Of a DNA stretch of 20,000 bases, positions 2 to 18,944 are shown piece after piece. Made by a program: the position numbers and the translations under genes. Each line of letters opens with the position of its first letter. The first letter of the stretch is position 1. The notes under the pieces were generated by a model. The model was not told where the DNA came from. It worked only from the letters and a program-made list of their open reading frames with translations, and ran no database searches. Source of the stretch: an uncultured virus (IMG/VR IMGVR_UViG_3300021197_000608) (lineage: Duplodnaviria > Heunggongvirae > Uroviricota > Caudoviricetes); the IMG/VR virus record IMGVR_UViG_3300021197_000608. One strand, given 5' to 3'.

Positions 2-3000
2 CTCATCAACCTTAATTACAATAGCATATTCAGCATCGTCTTTAAGATACACTGGTGAGTCAAACTCAAAAGTTGTAGAAGAAGAAGCATCAGTTGAAAC
101 ATTAATCTCTTCTGGTTTCAGAACTTTTTGTGCAAGTACTTTGTTTGATGGGTGTCCATCGACAGTATCAGTTAACTGAACATATACAGGTCGTGTACCA
201 GCAGTTTGGAAGAACAAGTCAACTTTAGTAACGAATGCACCTTCTTCACCTTGGTTAATAAATGTCTGTGCAAGTGGATCATGACCCCTACCTCTAGGCG
301 GAGGCGGAGGCGGTGGATCAGCAACAAACGAACTTGCAATTTGTCTACTAGATGTATTAACACCACCACGAAGTTCTCTACTAACAGTTCTTTCTCTTTG
401 AACTCTATCACGAACAAACTCTGCTTTTCTTACATTAAGAATTGTTTGTTCTCTCTCTTCTGCGATACCAGTTGCAGAATAAATTCTTTCTGCAGCTGAT
501 GTAAACGCACCAGTTGTTTTTTCGTTATTGACATTATCAATAAGTCTGAATACTCTTTCACCAGTTCTGAAGCGAAGTGCATCTGTATTTGGAAGATAGA
601 AAACTCCACTAAATTGACCAATAGAATTAGTTACTAGATTGGAAGAGTTTGTAAATACTGATGGGTTGGTTGTTGTTGAGGTGCCACCATTAATTTCTGT
701 AATAGTAACTTGGTTAACCCCACCACCATTTACACTTTTTCTACTTACTGTACCAGTACAAACATCACTTATGGCAAATCCATTGATTATGTTTGTTGCG
801 TATACTTCTCTAACTGAAGTACTGCCTGGCCCTTCCATTGCAACGTGACAAGAAGCCTGAAGTCTTTGACAAGAACCACCAGATGAGTATGAACTAACAG
901 TACCCAACACACTACCATCAATATTTGTAATTGTAAAGGTATTTGCCGAAGTATTAACAGAAGTAACAAGATAATTATTTTGTAAAGAATTTCTAAAGTT
1001 CAATTGTGTTGAACCACTAATACTACTAAGTTGTACATGGTGTCCAGGCCGTATACCTGATACACTTGCAACGGTTATTGTTGCAACAGTCGTACTGTTT
1101 TTAACAACACCAGAAATATTAGTTGCAGTTTGAGTTTGGTTACGAATAATGTCACCATAGTTAAATGCATTTGCAAAATCATCTTCACCGTCTGTAAAAC
1201 GAGCAGAGTCAGTACTACCACTTGAGCCAGGCGATTGAATATCTTTAGGACTAAATCTAATGTTTGAACCATTGACTTTGAAAATATCAGCAGGACGAAC
1301 AAAGTTACTTACATCTTCATTATCAAAGAATGCATGAACTCTTGTTTTTGGTTTTAGGTTTCCTACATTTACAGATATTGGTCGAGAACGCATGAAAGGA
1401 ATCATAGAGATACTAGTAATTCTATCTCCAAGATTATTTGATTCTACTGTAGACTGCATAGTAGTTCTAATACCAGAACTAACTTGTCCTACTTGTTGTG
1501 AGAACACCTGTCTACTCTGAACTGTTTGTGTGGTTGTAAATTGTGTACCACCACGAACTCTTTGGGCTGAAGTATTATTTCTACGAGATAGAACTTCTGT
1601 TCTAGTTGGAACTCTACGTCCATACCAGTTATCCTGCCATGAATTCCATACTGTTCCTGTTACACCAGCTGCATCTGCAAGTTCACGAATAACATCAAAG
1701 TTATTATCATCATTCACAATTACGTCTGGGCGACGTTCAACATCATTCCAATCATCCGAATATGGAACTAAGAAAATCTCACCAGTAAATGGTGCAACCT
1801 TATATGGGTTTGTATCAAAACTATCTGAAGCAAATGGATTCTTGATATGTTCTTCTGATGTATATGGAAGAGTAACAATTCCGTCTGGATGCATTGTATA
1901 ATTTGCAGAAGATCTACTTGCATCACTGGTAACAGATTCAAGCAACTGTACATTATCAGTAAATGCCTTTGGACGAGCTTCACGTTCTGTCATGTCAACT
2001 GCGATATTGTAATCTTTATTCTGAATATCACCAATAATGTGTCCAGTAAAGTTGTCTACAACAAAACCATTCTTTAGTCTATCAAATCCAGCAGAGTCCT
2101 TAATTACCAGATCAGCAGTTTCTTTTTCTAGAAGGTTGAGTGAAGTGTAGTATTCTAGATTTGAAATTCTCTTATCTAACTTACCAATGTCACGCATTGT
2201 GTATCTACGATTATCAAGTTTAGTAACTTGAACTTCATTCAACGACACGACATATGGTTCATAAACCATTTCAAATAGAACCATTCCACTGTCTGGTTGT
2301 TGTGGTTTCTGTGGATCAAGAGCTGGTACACCTTGGATAATATCAAATCTTCCAAGTCTATCCATAAACATAATATCCATTCTTGCGAGGAAGAATGAGA
2401 AGTCTGCTTCCATGTTTGTACCGATAGCAGGAAGTTCTGAAACAACAGCAGTTGCATTTGTAAAGTTTGCACCAGTGTCATCAATACGAGGTCTAAAGTC
2501 GATACAGTCTCTTAGTTCAAAGAAACTACCATCACCGTTTGCAGATGTGTAAGTTGGAATATTAACATAGTCTACAACACCATCATAGGAGTCAACAGAA
2601 AAGTAATCACCAGCACCATGTGTAAAGAAATCGAATGTAACACGCAATGCACCAGTTGGAGCTGGTTGTCCTGGCTTTAGTTTAATTCTTGCGAGATCAT
2701 AGAATGCATCTCTTTGTCCACCATCAAAATCATATCTATCTGTGATATCAATTGCACCAGAAGTTGCATACGCACCAAATCCACTGGGTTGCATTGAAAC
2801 ACTTGTAAGTTTAAATCCATCTGCTTTTCCAAGTGTAACCTCTGTTGATTGTACTGAAGTTTGACCAGTGATATCAACTGTAGCAGCAGACTGAAGTGTT
2901 TTAGTTTTTTCTGTAGCGTCATTTGCAGATACACGAATAGATGCAATCAATGTAACGGTGTCACCATTTGCCAATACATTAGTAATACCAGCATTAAGTC

Positions 3001-4993
3001 CACTAAATGTTATTGTTCTATCCGAACCACTCAATCCCATTTTTGCACTGGTGATATCAACAATGTCTCCAGCTGAACGAGGACTTGCCCCTGTTGCAAC
3101 AACAAGAGTATAGTTTCTCAAGTCTGAAATAGGTCTGAATGTTTCATCTGAACCAGCAACTGTAAATGAAACTGAGTTTGTTGATACGGTTGCAGGCGCA
3201 AACTTTCGTCTTACTGTATATGCAGTAGACTTTTCATTGTCTGGATTTGAAGTGGAGTCACCACGAATTTTTCTAACTCTGAAAAAGTTTGTTGGGAATA
3301 CAAGTAACTTTTGATCTGGACGAACAAGTTCTGCTTTAAATCTTTTGATTGTACCACCAGAGACAGCAGCTGCACCATTAGCATCTAGTGTAATTGCTTG
3401 TTGTCCACCAATACTTGCGACAGAACCAATGAGTGTGTCGTTGAGGAAAATAACATCACCAGTTTCAACTTCTTGTAAGAATACTGTACCAACACCAGTA
3501 ATGGTAGTACTACCTGTTGTAGATGTTGCAGTACCAGTTAGTGATACGAGTGTAGGACTTATGTTTGCAGTAAAGGTTGAACCAACATTATCTACAGATT
3601 TCACATCTCTTTCAAAATCGAAACCAGCATTCATGTTGATATCGAAGAGTCCAAGTTTAAATTTCTTTGTCGCAAGTGTACCCTGATAGTCACCATCGTG
3701 TAGAATAAATGAACGAGCTCTTGCAGAACCAATCTGTGTATTCTGTCCTAAATCTTCATACAATCTGATAACTTCAAACTCATCAATCTCTGGTACACCA
3801 GACACAGCTGTTACGAGAACAAAATTACCGATTGGTGTTTGAATTGGTTTATCGTTAACACGACCAAATGTTCTTGGTTTATCAGTCTTGACAAACTGAG
3901 TTGTCATAGTTTCTAATTCATAACCTTCAACATATGCTTTGCCAGGCTCAACTGCGAATACTAATTTAGATTCCTCACCACCAGAAGCCTGAGTATAGAT
4001 ACCACGGTTTGTTCCATCGTTTAAATGTTCACGAGTTTCAGAAAGGAATGGACGAACTTCATAGTTACCACTTTCATCAAATGTTCTACGAGCAAGTGTA
4101 TGTTCCAACTCAGCATAGTCTGCATACTTTTTAAACTTTTCAACAGTACCCTGATTAACACGAGCAAGTTCGATGAAGTCTGTGTCATCAGTTGCAGTAA
4201 GAGTTTTCTTTGATAGGGTAAGGTTGATTTTAAATCTGTGAGCGCCTGGCGCATTTGTGTTTGATGTTCCAGTTGCATTATCTAGAAGAGATGAATCCTC
4301 TTCAGGTGAAACAAAACTTTCTGCAATAGTCCAACCAACTCTATAAGAAGGAGTTGAACTATACTTGTCTAAAAGTATAACCTGTTCTGAATTTTCTACA
4401 AAGAAACCATTGACAAAGTAAACACCTTTGTGTACAAGTATAGCAGAACCAGTTCCTACTGGGGCGTTTGTCGATTGAATATTTGCACCAAGTTCTGTTA
4501 TTTGATTTGTTGTTAGTAATGGGTTTAGTACAGTTGTATTATCAGCATTAGTTGAAAGAACAGTTTCACCAGATGCAAATGTTTTTGTCTCTCCATCTGT
4601 ACCACTATCTTCATACTTGAAATATATTGTTAAAGGATCATCACCAGAAGCTGCAACTGTACCAATTACTTTTGCTTTGACACCAGTTGTTTGTCCAGTA
4701 ATAATTTTGTTTTGAAAATCTGTTCTATAACCTTCAACATCTTGTGCATTGTAAATTGATTCAACTTTAAGATATTCATATTCCATGTCGATATTAATAT
4801 CGCCTGGAATTACCATAGAACCTTGTTCAAAAACATGTTCACCAAAGTTATTAAGTTGTCTTTGGATTATAGTTTGTAATTGTGTAAGTTCACGAGCCTG
4901 AATTGAAAAGCCAGGACGAAACATAACACGATGAAAGTTCTTGGTTGAATCAAAGTCATCATAGTATGGGTTTACGTTGAAGTTAGTAGCCAT
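2..4993 (-). CDS. Large virion structural protein, VrlC/DUF4815-like (3' end outside window, >=1664 aa)
   Basis: Not in the ORF track because no stop falls in the window. ATG at 4993 with AGGA upstream. N-terminus MATNFNVNPYYDDFDSTKNFHRVMFRPGFSIQARELTQLQTIIQRQ matches the 'PYYDDF...FRPG..QARELTQLQ' start of T4-like phage VrlC/DUF4815 proteins. The same frame at the left edge reads DPLAQTF...VTKVDLFF...FEFDSPVYLKDDAEYAIVIKVDE. Frame checked at both ends and several internal points, not at every codon. Confidence 0.88.
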   Translation of the reverse strand, partial: MATNFNVNPYYDDFDSTKNFHRVMFRPGFSIQARELTQLQTIIQRQLNNFGEHVFEQGSMVIPGDINIDMEYEYLKVESIYNAQDVEGYRTDFQNKIITGQTTGVKAKVIGTVAASGDDPLTIYFKYEDSGTDGETKTFASGETVLSTNADNTTVLNPLLTTNQITELGANIQSTNAPVGTGSAILVHKGVYFVNGFFVENSEQVILLDKYSSTPSYRVGWTIAESFVSPEEDSSLLDNATGTSNTNAPGAHRFKINLTLSKKTLTATDDTDFIELARVNQGTVEKFKKYADYAELEHTLARRTFDESGNYEVRPFLSETREHLNDGTNRGIYTQASGGEESKLVFAVEPGKAYVEGYELETMTTQFVKTDKPRTFGRVNDKPIQTPIGNFVLVTAVSGVPEIDEFEVIRLYEDLGQNTQIGSARARSFILHDGDYQGTLATKKFKLGLFDINMNAGFDFERDVKSVDNVGSTFTANISPTLVSLTGTATSTTGSTTITGVGTVFLQEVETGDVIFLNDTLIGSVASIGGQQAITLDANGAAAVSGGTIKRFKAELVRPDQKLLVFPTNFFRVRKIRGDSTSNPDNEKSTAYTVRRKFAPATVSTNSVSFTVAGSDETFRPISDLRNYTLVVATGASPRSAGDIVDITSAKMGLSGSDRTITFSGLNAGITNVLANGDTVTLIASIRVSANDATEKTKTLQSAATVDITGQTSVQSTEVTLGKADGFKLTSVSMQPSGFGAYATSGAIDITDRYDFDGGQRDAFYDLARIKLKPGQPAPTGALRVTFDFFTHGAGDYFSVDSYDGVVDYVNIPTYTSANGDGSFFELRDCIDFRPRIDDTGANFTNATAVVSELPAIGTNMEADFSFFLARMDIMFMDRLGRFDIIQGVPALDPQKPQQPDSGMVLFEMVYEPYVVSLNEVQVTKLDNRRYTMRDIGKLDKRISNLEYYTSLNLLEKETADLVIKDSAGFDRLKNGFVVDNFTGHIIGDIQNKDYNIAVDMTEREARPKAFTDNVQLLESVTSDASRSSANYTMHPDGIVTLPYTSEEHIKNPFASDSFDTNPYKVAPFTGEIFLVPYSDDWNDVERRPDVIVNDDNNFDVIRELADAAGVTGTVWNSWQDNWYGRRVPTRTEVLSRRNNTSAQRVRGGTQFTTTQTVQSRQVFSQQVGQVSSGIRTTMQSTVESNNLGDRITSISMIPFMRSRPISVNVGNLKPKTRVHAFFDNEDVSNFVRPADIFKVNGSNIRFSPKDIQSPGSSGSTDSARFTDGEDDFANAFNYGDIIRNQTQTATNISGVVKNSTTVATITVASVSGIRPGHHVQLSSISGSTQLNFRNSLQNNYLVTSVNTSANTFTITNIDGSVLGTVSSYSSGGSCQRLQASCHVAMEGPGSTSVREVYATNIINGFAISDVCTGTVSRKSVNGGGVNQVTITEINGGTSTTTNPSVFTNSSNLVTNSIGQFSGVFYLPNTDALRFRTGERVFRLIDNVNNEKTTGAFTSAAERIYSATGIAEEREQTILNVRKAEFVRDRVQRERTVSRELRGGVNTSSRQIASSFVADPPPPPPPRGRGHDPLAQTFINQGEEGAFVTKVDLFFQTAGTRPVYVQLTDTVDGHPSNKVLAQKVLKPEEINVSTDASSSTTFEFDSPVYLKDDAEYAIVIKVDE

Positions 4994-12308: not shown

Positions 12309-14258
12309 TCAATAACCAGAGGAGCTGGAAGAGTGACTATGAGAACCAGAACTTGAGGAACTTGAACTTGAAGAAGAAGAACTTGAAGTTGAAGAGATTG
12401 TTGTTCCACCACTTGCAGCACCACTTGTAGCTTTACCGAATGTACCAACCACAGTATGAGAACCAGGCGAAGGAGTACTTCCCTGTTGATCTGTCTGTGC
12501 AGTAATTCTTGAACCACCACTATCAATACTTAAAAGTTGGTTTCTTACTGGAACGATATCATTTGAATCTGGAATTGCAAAGAAGTGAATTGTACCATCA
12601 CCATTCATAGTAGATGTGATCTGTAAATCATTTACAGTAATTGTACCTGTAGTATAATTGATATCACCAGCGTTTGCATTTACATAAACTCTTGATTGTG
12701 CGACTACCTGATAAACTCTTACGATACCAGAACCATCATCATCAATGAAATGTGTTGCAGTAGAACCAGCGACAGTAAATCCTGTTGATGATATTACTGG
12801 TGGTTCATCATCATGTGGATGATAGATTGAATTATAAAATTTTATAACATATTGTTTCTTAGTATTAATCTGAGCTCTTTGTGATTTGTACATTCTAATA
12901 TTAGAAATGTTGCTAATGATAGAAGTGTCGGATGTGTCAATCAATCTAGATATTTCTGAGAAACGATACATACCGTCAAACTTTTCTAGATTATTATCAC
13001 TGTATTCTGAAATTGTATTTGCAACTATTGTTTCTAAGTCACCAGAACTCTTAGTAGTTGTTGTCGGATCATATCTAAAGTTTACATCCATGATGACGTA
13101 AATGTTTTCTGGATCAACAATAACTGGACGAACCGAAGCAATGTTATAAGATTTTAATTGAGAGACAATATTTTCTTTTTGAGCTTCAGTTAAGAATGTT
13201 CCTTGAAGTGGACTAATAGAAATATAAACCTGTCCGTAAACTGGAGGATCATTATCTTCTCCACCCCACACTTGGATAGTTTTAATGTTGGGATATATTG
13301 TAGGAAGAATTTGTTTATAATCAAATCCAGTGACAGCACGTTTCTGTGCAGTATAACTGAGAGGTGCATAGTACTTGATTGATTGAATTGTTTCTGCTTC
13401 ATCACCACCAGATGCAGATTGAATAGTAGACACCGCAACATTTGTTTGTCCATTGATAGATGTTACAGTAAATTGATTTGCACTATTAGCTAATGTTTTA
13501 TTTGTAACAACGTATTCCATAATAATAATGTTACCATCAGAAAGTTTCTTACCAATTACATCATCCCCAAAGTAAACTTCAAATCTACCGTCATCTGTTT
13601 CTTGTAGAAAGTATACTGGATCAGAACCAGTTGTGCCTATGATTTCACTTGCAAGTGCAAATGTTTCTAATGTAGTATCTGTGGCAGATTTCTGTACTGA
13701 CACTTTAAGTGTTGTCGTATCAGCTCTATCATTCGCCAATAAATATTTCTTTTCTGGATTGTTATAATCTACTGTGTACTTTGTTGTTGTGAGTGTACCT
13801 TCATAGATTGGAATGTTTGAAAAGATAAGAAGTCCGTTTGTAATTTGTGTTGTGATATCTTCATTAGTAACAAAACCATAAGTCGAGTTGTTTACTGAAG
13901 TTGAAAACTTTGTACCTTTAGGCATTGTCAAGTTTGACAACTGATTATTAGTTACAGTAATCTCTACTCTTGCAACTGGAGCTCTTGCAGAACGTGGAGT
14001 ATATCCCAAACTCTTTGCGTGTGATACAACTGAACCACGAGTTGTTGCACTATCCAAAAACATTTCATTTGTTGCGAAGTTAGCATTCATTGCAAGATAG
14101 TGAGTATTGTATGCAAGTAAGTCGATGATAGTTGAAAGTCCAGAACCTTCAAAGTTATAATCAGAAAAGTCTGATTGACCTTTCATGTATGTTTTTAAAT
14201 TATTTTTTATTGCATCGAAATCTAATTCGGTAACATTAACTTCTGATTTACTTGACAT
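12309..14258 (-). CDS. gp6: Baseplate wedge subunit gp6 (649 aa)
   Basis: LDFDAIKNNLKTY...FSDYNFEGSGLS...LLAYNTHY...NEMFLDSA..RGSVVSHAKSLGYTPRS, FEVYFGDDVIGK, and Q.RAVT..DY motifs. Confidence 0.95.
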   Translation of the reverse strand: MSSKSEVNVTELDFDAIKNNLKTYMKGQSDFSDYNFEGSGLSTIIDLLAYNTHYLAMNANFATNEMFLDSATTRGSVVSHAKSLGYTPRSARAPVARVEITVTNNQLSNLTMPKGTKFSTSVNNSTYGFVTNEDITTQITNGLLIFSNIPIYEGTLTTTKYTVDYNNPEKKYLLANDRADTTTLKVSVQKSATDTTLETFALASEIIGTTGSDPVYFLQETDDGRFEVYFGDDVIGKKLSDGNIIIMEYVVTNKTLANSANQFTVTSINGQTNVAVSTIQSASGGDEAETIQSIKYYAPLSYTAQKRAVTGFDYKQILPTIYPNIKTIQVWGGEDNDPPVYGQVYISISPLQGTFLTEAQKENIVSQLKSYNIASVRPVIVDPENIYVIMDVNFRYDPTTTTKSSGDLETIVANTISEYSDNNLEKFDGMYRFSEISRLIDTSDTSIISNISNIRMYKSQRAQINTKKQYVIKFYNSIYHPHDDEPPVISSTGFTVAGSTATHFIDDDGSGIVRVYQVVAQSRVYVNANAGDINYTTGTITVNDLQITSTMNGDGTIHFFAIPDSNDIVPVRNQLLSIDSGGSRITAQTDQQGSTPSPGSHTVVGTFGKATSGAASGGTTISSTSSSSSSSSSSSSSGSHSHSSSSSGY

Positions 14259-14733: not shown

Positions 14734-15135
14734 TTACAAAACGACTAGAGCTCTATTCTTTATATGTTCTTCTTCTATGTCATCTTTTGACTGTCCATGA
14801 TATGCAACAGCATGATGTTCTGATATCATCTTATCATTAAGAATACTTCCATCAGTCAATTTAAATTGACCGAGTATCCTACCATATTTACCCTTCCCAT
14901 CCTTGACAGTCACAAGAGTCTGGTTAGAACCTACAGGCATATGTGCCTTAACATATTCCTTTGCAGCTGTTCCATACTTCTTTTCTTCCAAGTCTCTCGT
15001 TCTAGATTCTGGTGTATCAATACCATAAAAACGTATACGTTGTTTTCTCAACCATACACCAAACCCCAAGTCAATGTCAACATCTGTTGTGTCACCATCA
15101 ACCACTCTTAATATCTTACAATTATATTCGTACAT
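14734..15135 (-). CDS. Staphylococcal nuclease (thermonuclease)-like protein (133 aa)
   Basis: MYEYNCKILRVVDGDT...RIRFYGIDTPE...GKYGRILG carries the SNase DGDT, GIDTPE and YGR motifs. The real start is likely 15135 (GGAGG just upstream, 1 nt after the PAAR stop), not 15216. Confidence 0.85.
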   Translation of the reverse strand: MYEYNCKILRVVDGDTTDVDIDLGFGVWLRKQRIRFYGIDTPESRTRDLEEKKYGTAAKEYVKAHMPVGSNQTLVTVKDGKGKYGRILGQFKLTDGSILNDKMISEHHAVAYHGQSKDDIEEEHIKNRALVVL

Positions 15136-15136
15136 C

Positions 15137-15433
15137 TTATCCTCCAGCGAATACGTTAGACGAACCAGAGTTGGATGCATTAGGCACCCATGAACCGTGG
15201 CCACCTGTTGCGTCACCTTTTCGATGAACGCCTATACCATTTACAAATACGGTTGAACTTCCAGCTGTTGCTGGATCTCCGCATGATGTTGTGTCTCCAA
15301 TCCTAACAGTCGCTGCACCATTTGTAAATACATTTGGTGAACCAGCTGCGTATGCGGTTTGGTGAAATGGATTAGGTGTAGGACTTGCGTGTCCTACATG
15401 ATTATCTAATCCAACTCTTGTTACTTCAGGCAT
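15137..15433 (-). CDS. gp5.4: PAAR-repeat spike tip protein, T4 gp5.4-like (98 aa)
   Basis: Three R.GD-type repeats (TRVGLD, VRIGD, HRKGD), GSPNVFTNG/GSSTVFVNG/GSSNVF, His/Cys metal ligands; directly downstream of gp5. Confidence 0.93.
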   Translation of the reverse strand: MPEVTRVGLDNHVGHASPTPNPFHQTAYAAGSPNVFTNGAATVRIGDTTSCGDPATAGSSTVFVNGIGVHRKGDATGGHGSWVPNASNSGSSNVFAGG

Positions 15434-15441
15434 AATTATTC

Positions 15442-17232
15442 CTATGCGTATATCTGATAGAACTTACCGTACTCTTTATATCTTCTATGATTATAAAAAG
15501 TTGCAATATCAAATCTATTACCAGACGGTTTAAGTGAAATGTGTAACCAAGGATTACCAGAACCACCAGTTTGATATTCTAGTAAGAATTGATCGTGTGG
15601 TACATTTTCACGAACCCACAATGCAATATCATAATACTCTGATCTTGATGCGCCACTAAATTGCATATCAGCAGCCATTCCTCTTTCATGCTGAGATGAA
15701 CCTTTTGCTGGGCGGAAACCAGAAGTGATAAACATATTTGGGTATTGGTCTTTTATTGGATCAAGAACATTAGTTGCCAAGTTCTTGAGATTATTTATTA
15801 TATCCTCTAGAGTTAAACCGTGTTGTTCTTTTATCTTATGTCCGAACACCGCATTCTTTGATACGTCACCCACCTTATAATGTTTTGATATCTGTAGACT
15901 ATAATCAACAGTCTGTTCCGTAAGTGTAACCTGATCAACAGCTCCTACTGATTGATTACCAGCCTCTACAGATGCTATGTTTGGATTTTCTCCTGTTTCT
16001 GCACCGTGTTCTGTAATGTCATCTGGAACATTTGGTTCTGCAATTAATCTTCTTGACGCACTTTCTGTATTATATCTACCCTCAAGCGCATTGAAAGAAT
16101 AATCAGAGAATGATGTCGGTAGATATTTTCCAGCAGCAACCGCAGCTTTGATTTCATCTTCACTCTTCTCAACATCATCGTCACCCATGAACTCACCTTC
16201 ATCTGGCAATTCTATTCTTGCTTTCTCATCAAGGACTATTGCCTCTGGTGGTTCAGTAATATCTTCACCTTCTTCATATGTTGGAAACCCACGAGAGTCT
16301 TTGAACTCAATGTCTGGAGCAGCTATCACCGCAGCTGCAGCTCTGCCCGCTTTGTTAAAGTCTATGGTAGAACCAACCAAGTCCATTGCACTAGTAGATG
16401 TAATGTTCATTGTAGTACCAGCATTGATATCCATAATTGTAGAAGTGATAAGATTAATATCATCACCAAACATATAGACACCATGTCCATCACCAACAAT
16501 ATCCAAGTTTCCTTTAATGTTTGTTTTGTAATCCCCATCCACATTGATAGTAAAGTTTGCCTGTGTCTGTAGTTTTATATCTGCAACAGCTGTTGCGGTA
16601 ATGTTTTGTTGTGAAGTAATCTCTGTAGACTCATTTGAATACATACGAATATTTTTGCCCGCATGGAACGTAATGTTTCTTCCGACATTCCAAGTCATGT
16701 CCTCATCTACTTGTCCATTGACAGAACCACGAACATAAAGATTAGTATTGCCGTCAACATATAAATCTACATTACCACGAACACGAACCTTTTTGTTCTT
16801 GTGAACGACTTCATAGTCCTCACCAATAATCTTAGTAACCTTTGTTCCGTCAGGATGAACTTCATAGAACGTACCAGAACGATGATACTCATGTATCCGT
16901 TCATGGCCAGGCGTATCATCAAACTCTTGAATGTGACCAGACTCAGTTTCCCTTACATGGTTGAATGGATACTGTGCATTGAATGGAGTCTTTGGCTCAC
17001 CTGTCAAATCATCCACACGTTTCTTTTTGAAATCTACTACTGGATGTTGTTTAGCTAAATCATTTACCGCAAGTCTGTTTGTGTCTACCTCATTTACCCT
17101 ACGAGGATAATAAGAGCGAGGATCACCAAACCCATTAAGAGTCTGTTGCGTTGAAACTGTTACTTCAACTTCCGTACCTTCTCTTGGTGGTTCATCGAAT
17201 ATGATTTTGTTATCTTCAATTTTATATGACAT
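15442..17232 (-). CDS. gp5: gp5 C-terminal part: beta-helix needle plus C-terminal M15A-type (Peptidase_M15_3) zinc peptidase (596 aa)
   Basis: GFGDP..YYPRR...DTN.L linker, YPFNHVRETESGHIQEFDDTPGHER..H.SGTFYEVHPDG, 8-residue V.G(N/D) repeats ending in GSTIDFN (T4 gp5 ends GSRIDIG), then a ~303-aa extension with ITSGFR...SQHERGMAAD...WLHIS. GAGGT Shine-Dalgarno 6 nt before the ATG. Confidence 0.9.
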   Translation of the reverse strand: MSYKIEDNKIIFDEPPREGTEVEVTVSTQQTLNGFGDPRSYYPRRVNEVDTNRLAVNDLAKQHPVVDFKKKRVDDLTGEPKTPFNAQYPFNHVRETESGHIQEFDDTPGHERIHEYHRSGTFYEVHPDGTKVTKIIGEDYEVVHKNKKVRVRGNVDLYVDGNTNLYVRGSVNGQVDEDMTWNVGRNITFHAGKNIRMYSNESTEITSQQNITATAVADIKLQTQANFTINVDGDYKTNIKGNLDIVGDGHGVYMFGDDINLITSTIMDINAGTTMNITSTSAMDLVGSTIDFNKAGRAAAAVIAAPDIEFKDSRGFPTYEEGEDITEPPEAIVLDEKARIELPDEGEFMGDDDVEKSEDEIKAAVAAGKYLPTSFSDYSFNALEGRYNTESASRRLIAEPNVPDDITEHGAETGENPNIASVEAGNQSVGAVDQVTLTEQTVDYSLQISKHYKVGDVSKNAVFGHKIKEQHGLTLEDIINNLKNLATNVLDPIKDQYPNMFITSGFRPAKGSSQHERGMAADMQFSGASRSEYYDIALWVRENVPHDQFLLEYQTGGSGNPWLHISLKPSGNRFDIATFYNHRRYKEYGKFYQIYA

Positions 17233-18302
17233 TATGATACCTCTGTGTTAATCCCTTTTTCCTCTGCGTATTCCTTAATACTTTGAGAACCATTCTTTAG
17301 GGAAGTAGGTGGGCCTTTTGTAAACTCAGATGGATAGAAGTGTCCAACATCATTTGGAATATCATTCTTTAATTTAAATTGTCCTAATGCTGCAACTGCA
17401 AGTGAAGTATAGTTGTCACCACTTGTTCCTGTGTCATACTTTCCGTTTGGTAAATAGATAAGAAGATCTATTGCACATCCGTAATTGTGCCATGAAGAAC
17501 CAGGCCGTGCAGCTCTGTTTTTTGTTCTACCAGATTTATAATCGTTGTAAAGTTTTCTTTGTTCTGACATAGACCTGTATCCGTATCCGATACTTGCATC
17601 ATAGTCTGGATTATCTTCAATGAACTTTTTGATACCATTCGCCCATCTATCACGCAACCAAGGAACAAGACTGTTCAGTGCTTTTGCTGTTCTGTTGCCA
17701 TATCTCGATCTACCGAAGTCATCCCCTGTATATGTTTGACCACCAGAAAACTCTGGTGCTTGTGCTTCTGTATTGATTGGTGATTCTGATGGTCTGTTTT
17801 CTGCTACATCTGATTCGCCATCTTTTGTTACGAGAACAGTTGAGTCCATAGTTCCAATTGGTGTTGTGAATTCTGTAGTGTTACCATCTGCAATAAAAGA
17901 AGTTGTCTGAACTTGTGCAGCTGGTTTTTGTTGATCGTCAGAGTAATCAAATGGAGCTCCACCTTGTGGTGCAGCGGAAGCATTAATCTTGCCTGGCAAT
18001 GTTCCGAATACCATTGGTTCTTGCATGAAGTCTGGATCACGCCAGAAACCAATCACCCATGTACCTTCAATCGGCCCAGTAGGTGACATACCAATACCAC
18101 CAGATGATGCAGAGTTCGCTGGTTGAATACAAAACGCCCAAGGCAAATCACCAGTAGGAAGTTTTGTTTTATCTTCTGTGTGATATCCGAATACACGAAC
18201 ACGAACTCTACCTAGTGCCTGTGGGTCGCCTCTATCTTCTACGACACCAATCCACCAGATAAACCCATCACGCCCAGCAAAATAAGAAAGATTTTGTTCC
18301 AT
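17232..18302 (-). CDS. gp5: gp5 N-terminal part: OB-fold hub plus M15B/C-type zinc peptidase (356 aa)
   Basis: F.WWIGVVEDR.DP..LGRVRVRVFGYH...LPT.DLPWA...GIG.SPTG.IEGTWVIGF..D...QEP..FGT is the gp5 OB-fold. GYRS..EQ..LY...A.PG.SWHNYG.AID...DVGHF matches VanY / L-Ala-D-Glu peptidase-type motifs. Confidence 0.9.
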   Translation of the reverse strand: MEQNLSYFAGRDGFIWWIGVVEDRGDPQALGRVRVRVFGYHTEDKTKLPTGDLPWAFCIQPANSASSGGIGMSPTGPIEGTWVIGFWRDPDFMQEPMVFGTLPGKINASAAPQGGAPFDYSDDQQKPAAQVQTTSFIADGNTTEFTTPIGTMDSTVLVTKDGESDVAENRPSESPINTEAQAPEFSGGQTYTGDDFGRSRYGNRTAKALNSLVPWLRDRWANGIKKFIEDNPDYDASIGYGYRSMSEQRKLYNDYKSGRTKNRAARPGSSWHNYGCAIDLLIYLPNGKYDTGTSGDNYTSLAVAALGQFKLKNDIPNDVGHFYPSEFTKGPPTSLKNGSQSIKEYAEEKGINTEVS

Positions 18303-18867: not shown

Positions 18868-18944
18868 TGGTCGGAGATGCTGGATTTGAACCAACGACCC
18901 CTTGTTCCCAAAACAAGTGCGCTACCAGACTGCGCTAATCTCCG
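18868..18944 (-). tRNA. tRNA-Pro (anticodon TGG), CCA encoded
   Basis: Reverse complement CGGAGATTAGCGCAGTCTGGTAGCGCACTTGTTTTGGGAACAAGGGGTCGTTGGTTCAAATCCAGCATCTCCGACCA: acceptor CGGAGAT/ATCTCCG, D-arm GCGC/GCGC, anticodon stem CTTGT/ACAAG with loop TT-TGG-GA, T-loop TTCAAAT; 77 nt. Confidence 0.97.

Follow-up and report, generated by a model that had tools for sequence, protein, structure and literature searches.

The locus described here raises the question of whether two short segments, one in each chain of a split phage tail spike, are parts of a single small domain, and what such a divided domain would do. The DNA analysed, called the window below, comprises 20,000 nucleotides of an uncultured virus of the Caudoviricetes (IMG/VR record IMGVR_UViG_3300021197_000608), and it holds a block of baseplate and central-spike genes on the minus strand, encoding chains 1 and 2 of the spike, a PAAR protein, an SNase-like nuclease and homologues of gp25 and gp6. 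The locus is the central spike (gp5) of a Melnitz-like marine myophage, present as two translationally coupled genes. An earlier note on this DNA had picked out two peptides, one per chain, as the N- and C-terminal halves of a module interrupted by a peptidase, and both peptides were recovered where it had placed them (Table 1). The peptide of chain 1 (QTTSFIADGNTTEFTTPIGTMDSTVLVTKDG; hereafter the N-half) is placed downstream of the OB domain and upstream of the VanY peptidase, while that of chain 2 (MSYKIEDNKIIFDEPPREGTEVEVTV; the C-half) forms the N-terminal end of its chain. Judged from family-level sequence comparison, both pieces are very probably homologous to one module of the XD/gp17 type, with the nested VanY peptidase and the break between the genes, which is conserved, both falling in one of its loops.

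Correspondence of the two segments with one module

The segments were compared with intact copies by means of three alignments, of N-halves (A1), of C-halves (A2) and of 43 uninterrupted modules (A3), the last obtained from 80 relatives of Melnitz gene 170, which yielded 115 distinct modules of which 43 were aligned. With hhalign, A1 was placed on columns 2-36 of A3 (E 1.7e-5, probability 78.7%) and A2 on columns 37-60 (E 1.9e-6, probability 89.6%); the two ranges abut exactly. An equal abutment was obtained on an independent profile, phrog_2710 (tail fiber), which was matched by five of 18 N-half sequences at positions 192-222 (best E 0.0049) and by eight of 19 C-half sequences at positions 225-249, the best of the latter (E 0.001) being the window copy. 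A local hidden Markov model (HMM) was built from 70 intact modules more diverse than those of A3. Its top match in chain 1 (best 60 of 62 sequences) extended from positions 1-4 to positions 29-36, and in chain 2 (best 60 of 64) from position 37/38 to 59/60, corresponding to residues 2/3-24/25. As a register control, consensus sequences of halves and intact modules were scored against each other with BLOSUM62 over 55 positions; the true register gave +98 and 12 shifted ones gave -15 to -59, which supports the correspondence.

Module positions 35/36 and 37 are separated by some 195 residues together with a stop codon and a second start. The full module profile was covered only by both chains jointly, and neither chain presented it as a contiguous domain. 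The two peptides complement each other as N- and C-parts of a widespread tail-protein module, as the earlier note had claimed, though with a length of about 60 residues instead of the 70 it had given. Its placing of the peptidase and the stop/restart in a loop of the module was likewise supported, the loop being that between strands 2 and 3. Taken singly, the window copies scored low against the local HMM, the N-half with 7.8 bits (to position 29 at most) and the C-half with 4.0 bits, so that the case rests on the family and not on one sequence. A Pfam search with the two segments alone returned no family at E up to 10, and a PDB sequence search with both half-profiles gave chance-level matches only (E 0.25-3).

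Intact modules proved to be common. At E<=0.001 the A3 profile matched 18,674 representative proteins, 4,285 of them at E<=1e-10, and the module was often found in tandem, with 2-22 copies per protein. Uninterrupted copies were seen in tail-fibre genes of Melnitz, Mosig and an IMG/VR contig (phrog_2710 search), Melnitz gene 170 being an example. This gene (L087/L091; relatives L092-L171), annotated as 'putative tail fiber protein', encodes about 270 residues made up of three tandem modules, and the first module copy in proteins of this type carries an extra insertion in the hairpin of strands 3 and 4.

A model of the intact module (predicted local distance difference test, pLDDT, 93.7) showed five strands, at residues 10-12, 23-27, 38-41, 44-47 and 56-61. 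From these positions the chain break is placed at about residues 32-37, in the loop that leads into strand 3. A Foldseek search with the intact module gave nothing at E<=0.001; its top rows were all phage tail proteins, with template modelling (TM) scores of 0.7-0.88, and VIA-align scores were computed on these rows. They amounted to Z 10.0 for an LME-1 tail protein, Z 9.4 for residues 10-78 of T7 gp17 (root mean square deviation 1.6, 62 aligned), Z 8.4 for residues 192-249 of CBA120 TSP4, which are its XD2 domain (28% identity), and Z 5.8 for residues 166-247 of the T4 baseplate chain 5iv5_AC, a 602-residue chain that we take to be gp10. In the cited excerpt of the TSP4 paper, T4 gp10 is listed under entry 5IV5, and XD2 and XD3 are described as jellyrolls with adjacent, antiparallel N- and C-terminal strands and a role in protein-protein docking (PMC8825819). 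The intact relatives are thus like XD2/XD3 (T4 gp10, CBA120 TSP4) and the N-terminal tail-attachment domain of T7 gp17 in fold, in their length of about 60 residues and in their use in tail fibres. The known XD2/XD3/gp17 examples are single-chain domains located in fibres, spikes and the baseplate periphery, whereas the window module lies inside the central spike, contains a nested enzyme and is spread over two polypeptides. A jellyroll fold is predicted for it from the model of its intact relatives, the two-chain version being read from sequence.

Conservation of the gene boundary and of the halves

With chain 1 as query, 80 IMG/VR loci were fetched. Both regions are spanned by 62 of these, and both halves were present in all 62. 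Five further loci showed one half only, the contig end cutting them, and 13 had neither half, two being incomplete and 11 belonging to another lineage. Among the 60 loci with the peptidase motif and a C-half, the junction read TAATG in 54, TAA-GAA-ATG with the genes in frame in four and ATGA in two; TAACATG was found in L013 and L014. A stop followed by a restart was kept in every relative examined, in four junction forms. That the stop persists even in loci whose two genes share a frame speaks for selection acting on the break as such. In the window, GAGG is placed 7 nucleotides 5' of the chain 2 ATG.

The nearest named relatives were four Methylophilales phage Melnitz genomes (Kyanoviridae), with identities of 56% (chain 1) and 48% (chain 2). 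Melnitz genes 154 and 155 ('OB domain protein' and 'baseplate hub subunit/tail lysozyme') are the same two genes and carry the half-modules, and in Melnitz-3 (MZ577098.1) they are annotated as two coding sequences sharing one base. The N-half ends with the canonical NGVVQ in Melnitz and with KDGESD in the window. The terms gp5, OB domain, peptidase and baseplate hub were absent from the Melnitz paper (PMC9004378) in a term search, and the split is not described there.

All 57 relatives of chain 2 (query residues 1-80) begin with M-x-Y-x-I-E, their C-half starting from residue 2 at module position 37. A collection of 5.8 billion proteins yielded 64 longer relatives of chain 1 (624-2000 residues), whose coverage of chain 1 never exceeds 56%. 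They include no fusion of chains 1 and 2, and neither they nor the 57 chain-2 relatives include a gp5 with an intact module; both searches rely on 5-residue words in common with the query, which distant forms could escape. Conservation in homologues, which the earlier note had named as a test of its proposal, was accordingly seen for the two-gene split with both halves, and the gp5 homologues with an uninterrupted module that it had envisaged did not appear.

Invariant residues among the relatives were G, F, T, P, D, T, V and G in the N-half and Y3, I5, F12, P16 and E21 in the C-half. These are the hallmarks of the module, and they are kept in both halves, in agreement with the earlier impression that each half looks intact. 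The hallmark core residues are invariant despite an overall divergence of about 50%, and there are no indels or gaps in either half.

A proposed two-chain jellyroll and its alternatives

The arrangement is best described as one copy of a docking module of about 60 residues, of predicted jellyroll fold, between the OB domain and the GFxDP..DTNRLA segment, with the VanY/M15 peptidase nested in the loop of strands 2 and 3. The polypeptide ends right past the peptidase, which puts strands 1 and 2 on chain 1 and strands 3-5 in the opening 25 residues of chain 2. Once translated in a coupled manner, both parts would pair as one two-chain jellyroll, in which strand 1 (chain 1) would lie beside strand 5 (chain 2) and pair with it directly, if the XD2/XD3 fold can be transferred. 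Such a jellyroll would restore the connection from the OB domain to the needle non-covalently and would tether the peptidase beside the needle, as the genetic counterpart of the proteolytically cut (gp5*-gp5C)3 of T4. The clasp could open during penetration and free the peptidase, which is speculation by analogy with T4 gp5*/gp5C. Reassembly of the halves in trans as a putative clasp is the most likely reading in our judgement, and we hold it with moderate confidence. The fuller proposal is doubtful, namely that the two-chain jellyroll might be the main tether between the OB domain with its peptidase and the needle, a natural, self-assembling split domain formed by gene fission around a nested enzyme and opening under the load or the environment of penetration, with release and activation of VanY in the periplasm.

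T4 gp5, as part of (gp27-gp5*-gp5C)3, shares with the window locus an OB domain at the N-terminus, a cell-wall hydrolase in central position, a needle of beta-helix type and, close by, a gene for a PAAR-type tip. It is also similar in that the chain is broken just past the enzyme, OB plus enzyme and needle being separate polypeptides in non-covalent association, as stated for T4 in the cited excerpt of PMC3004832. The break is genetic in the window, with a stop and restart and two open reading frames (ORFs), whereas in T4 it is proteolytic and follows synthesis as a single polypeptide. According to the same excerpt, cleavage of T4 gp5 separates Ser351 from Ala352 and yields gp5* and gp5C, the linkers on either side of the lysozyme lie next to each other along the helix, and full lysozyme activity is restored on dissociation of gp5C (PMC3004832). 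The half-modules of the window occupy the places of these two linkers; the window enzyme is flanked by jellyroll module halves, while T4 gp5 has no such module.

The enzymes and their sites also differ. The middle enzyme is a VanY/M15 peptidase in the window and a lysozyme in T4, and it stands before the GFxDP..DTN segment in the window, whereas the lysozyme of the T4 type follows GFSDP..DTN and precedes the needle (wV7 alignment). In the alignment with the gp5 proteins of wV7 and Mosig, the GFGDP...DTNRLAVND-type motif of single-chain gp5 adjoins the OB domain, Mosig gp5 passing from its OB domain straight into GFYDP..DTNRLAVND and then into the needle, and the window cassette of N-half, peptidase, break and C-half is located upstream of GFGDP. 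An enzyme site different from that of T4 points to independent acquisition. Unlike T4 gp5, chain 2 of the window is terminated by a second peptidase.

A second marine lineage bears on the role of the halves. In L072-L082 (IMG/VR loci, e.g. L072 3483-6901), gp5 is also present as two overlapping genes, and, as in the window, a gene for OB plus enzyme overlaps one for GFxDP, needle and C-terminal M15 peptidase. The first gene combines the OB domain with a different enzyme (motif GGASYGTYQFAS), and the second begins with an N-terminal region of about 230 residues ahead of GFxDP, the needle and the M15 peptidase. This long, unrelated region replaces the C-half, and module halves are absent from both genes. 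Because this lineage splits gp5 after another enzyme without any halves, the chain break may be older than the module.

Chance resemblance, or a meeting of two unrelated truncated modules, would be in keeping with the low bit scores of the window halves and with the empty Pfam and PDB searches. It is nevertheless very improbable in view of the family E values on exactly abutting ranges, their repetition on phrog_2710 and the outcome of the register control. As little credit can be given to the idea that the gene split is artefactual or is bridged in translation, a frameshift error, programmed frameshift or read-through giving one chain in which the peptidase is simply a nested domain. The one-base overlap TAATG would suit such joining, and read-through would fuse the chains in the four loci where chain 2 stands in frame behind TAA-GAA. 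Stop and start are, however, kept in all 60 loci that have the peptidase motif and a C-half, despite their varied junctions, GAGG or GGAG is found 7-8 nucleotides upstream of the ATG, no slippery run is visible at the window junction, no fused protein occurs among the 64 longer relatives, and two coding sequences are annotated in the Melnitz isolate genomes.

More weight attaches to the view that the halves are relics of a module disrupted either by peptidase plus chain break or through cassette exchange, and that they now form linkers or strands along the needle and no jellyroll. Several observations speak for this view or at least against a two-chain clasp. Among 45 relatives, whose sequence pairs are non-independent, the ratio of non-synonymous to synonymous substitution rates (dN/dS) was 0.24 in the N-half and 0.18 in the C-half, 0.19-0.20 in the flanking linkers and 0.20 in the peptidase; the halves are no lower than their neighbours, so selection does not single them out. 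The OB core had a dN/dS of 0.07 and a mean pairwise identity of 0.89. Conservation at single positions of the halves was not significantly correlated with that of intact modules (Spearman 0.21, p 0.13), and in the window clade the NGVVQ edge strand is lost, KDGESD standing in its place, with the N-half alignable only to module position 29. The two-gene gp5 of L072-L082 works without the module, so that a clasp is not needed to hold two gp5 chains, and the T4 linkers run along the helix on their own (cited excerpt of PMC3004832). Against relics stand the invariance of the hallmark residues, the freedom of both halves from indels, their unfailing co-occurrence and the position of the break at one fixed point of the module, in all 57 chain-2 relatives and in all local HMM matches listed. 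On balance, we regard decay of the module to mere linkers as unlikely, though well above chance resemblance or joined translation in probability.

A two-chain gp5*/gp5C spike, the nested insertion of a domain and a docking jellyroll of the XD/gp17 type are each known, and they are combined here at one locus. If the halves pair as a clasp, the locus would provide a natural small beta domain built over two polypeptides, forming a non-covalent joint in a force-bearing machine. No protease would then be needed for the spike to carry a wall-degrading enzyme and set it free, and protein engineering would gain a small, naturally split pair of domain halves. Tail lysins of gp5 were probably gained more than once, T4 and this phage having different enzymes at different insertion sites. 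Melnitz and its relatives are abundant in the ocean and their hosts are cultivable, which makes the idea testable.

Features of the spike genes and their neighbours

Table 1. Features of the split gp5 locus, with positions in the window
Feature	Position	Strand	Content or basis
Chain 1 gene, 356 residues	17232..18302	-	OB domain, module N-half, VanY/M15 peptidase
OB-fold core, residues about 10-105	17988..18275	-	Pfam and PHROG matches
N-half of XD-like module, chain 1 residues 132-162, strands 1 and 2	17817..17909	-	hhalign, phrog_2710
VanY/M15 peptidase domain, residues about 196-340	17283..17717	-	Pfam VanY, endolysin PHROGs
TAATG junction, chain 1 stop and chain 2 start sharing one base	17230..17234	-	sequence
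Chain 2 gene, 596 residues	15442..17232	-	C-half, GFGDP motif, beta-helix needle, C-terminal M15-like peptidase
C-half of XD-like module, chain 2 residues 1-26, strands 3-5	17155..17232	-	hhalign, phrog_2710
GFGDP...DTNRLAVND motif, chain 2 residues 34-60	17053..17133	-	gp5 alignment; Pfam Gp5_OB positions 75-109
gp5C-type beta-helix needle, residues about 85-300	16333..16980	-	phrog_430 positions 315-544
Second M15-like peptidase, C-terminal, residues about 441-596	15445..15912	-	phrog_894 endolysin, 3.4e-14
PAAR spike-tip protein, next gene downstream	15137..15433	-	Pfam PAAR_motif, 7.4e-11

Chain 1 matched Pfam Gp5_OB with 63.2 bits (cut-off 25; E 4.1e-17) and the baseplate hub profile phrog_430 with 8.7e-44. 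Pfam VanY was matched with 31.3 bits by the whole of chain 1 (E 1.9e-07) and with 33 bits by the domain alone, the cut-off again being 25. Residues H272, D279 and H321 were invariant across 30 sequences and are candidates for the metal-binding His, Asp and His of M15 peptidases. When chain 1 was modelled alone (30 sequences), residues 183-356, including the peptidase, had block pLDDT values of 77-96, and residues 1-182 stayed below 50, the certainly folded OB domain included.

Chain 2 matched phrog_430 with E 4.6e-59, in keeping with a triple-stranded beta-helix needle. Pfam matches of the needle were below threshold (Gp5_trimer_C 20.8 bits, DUF2345 21 bits), and its blocks YPFNHVRETESGHIQEFDDTPG and ETESGHIQEFDDTPG could be aligned with T4-type gp5. 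The second peptidase remained under the cut-off for Pfam Peptidase_M15_3 (E 0.019). The spike thus contains two separate cell-wall peptidases of M15 type, one VanY-like in chain 1 and one endolysin-like beyond the needle in chain 2. C-terminal M15 domains (PF05951, PF08291) are also found, as precomputed annotation, in many single-chain gp5 relatives.

The SNase-like nuclease ORF (14734-15216, minus strand; Pfam SNase 8e-12) has a GTG start, encodes 160 residues and shares 80 bases with the end of the PAAR gene; its true start is probably an internal ATG. At this position in Melnitz, a shorter 'nuclease-like protein' is annotated. Upstream of the chain 1 gene, a tRNA-Pro (TGG) was found at 18868-18944 (minus strand), where a tRNA-Leu is located in Melnitz. 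A further ORF on the minus strand (2-4993, more than 1664 residues) exits the window end and contains a PPPPPPPP run, and the gp6 homologue ends at its C-terminus in a long serine run, SSSSSSSSSSSSSGSHSHSSSSSGY (12309-12400, minus strand).

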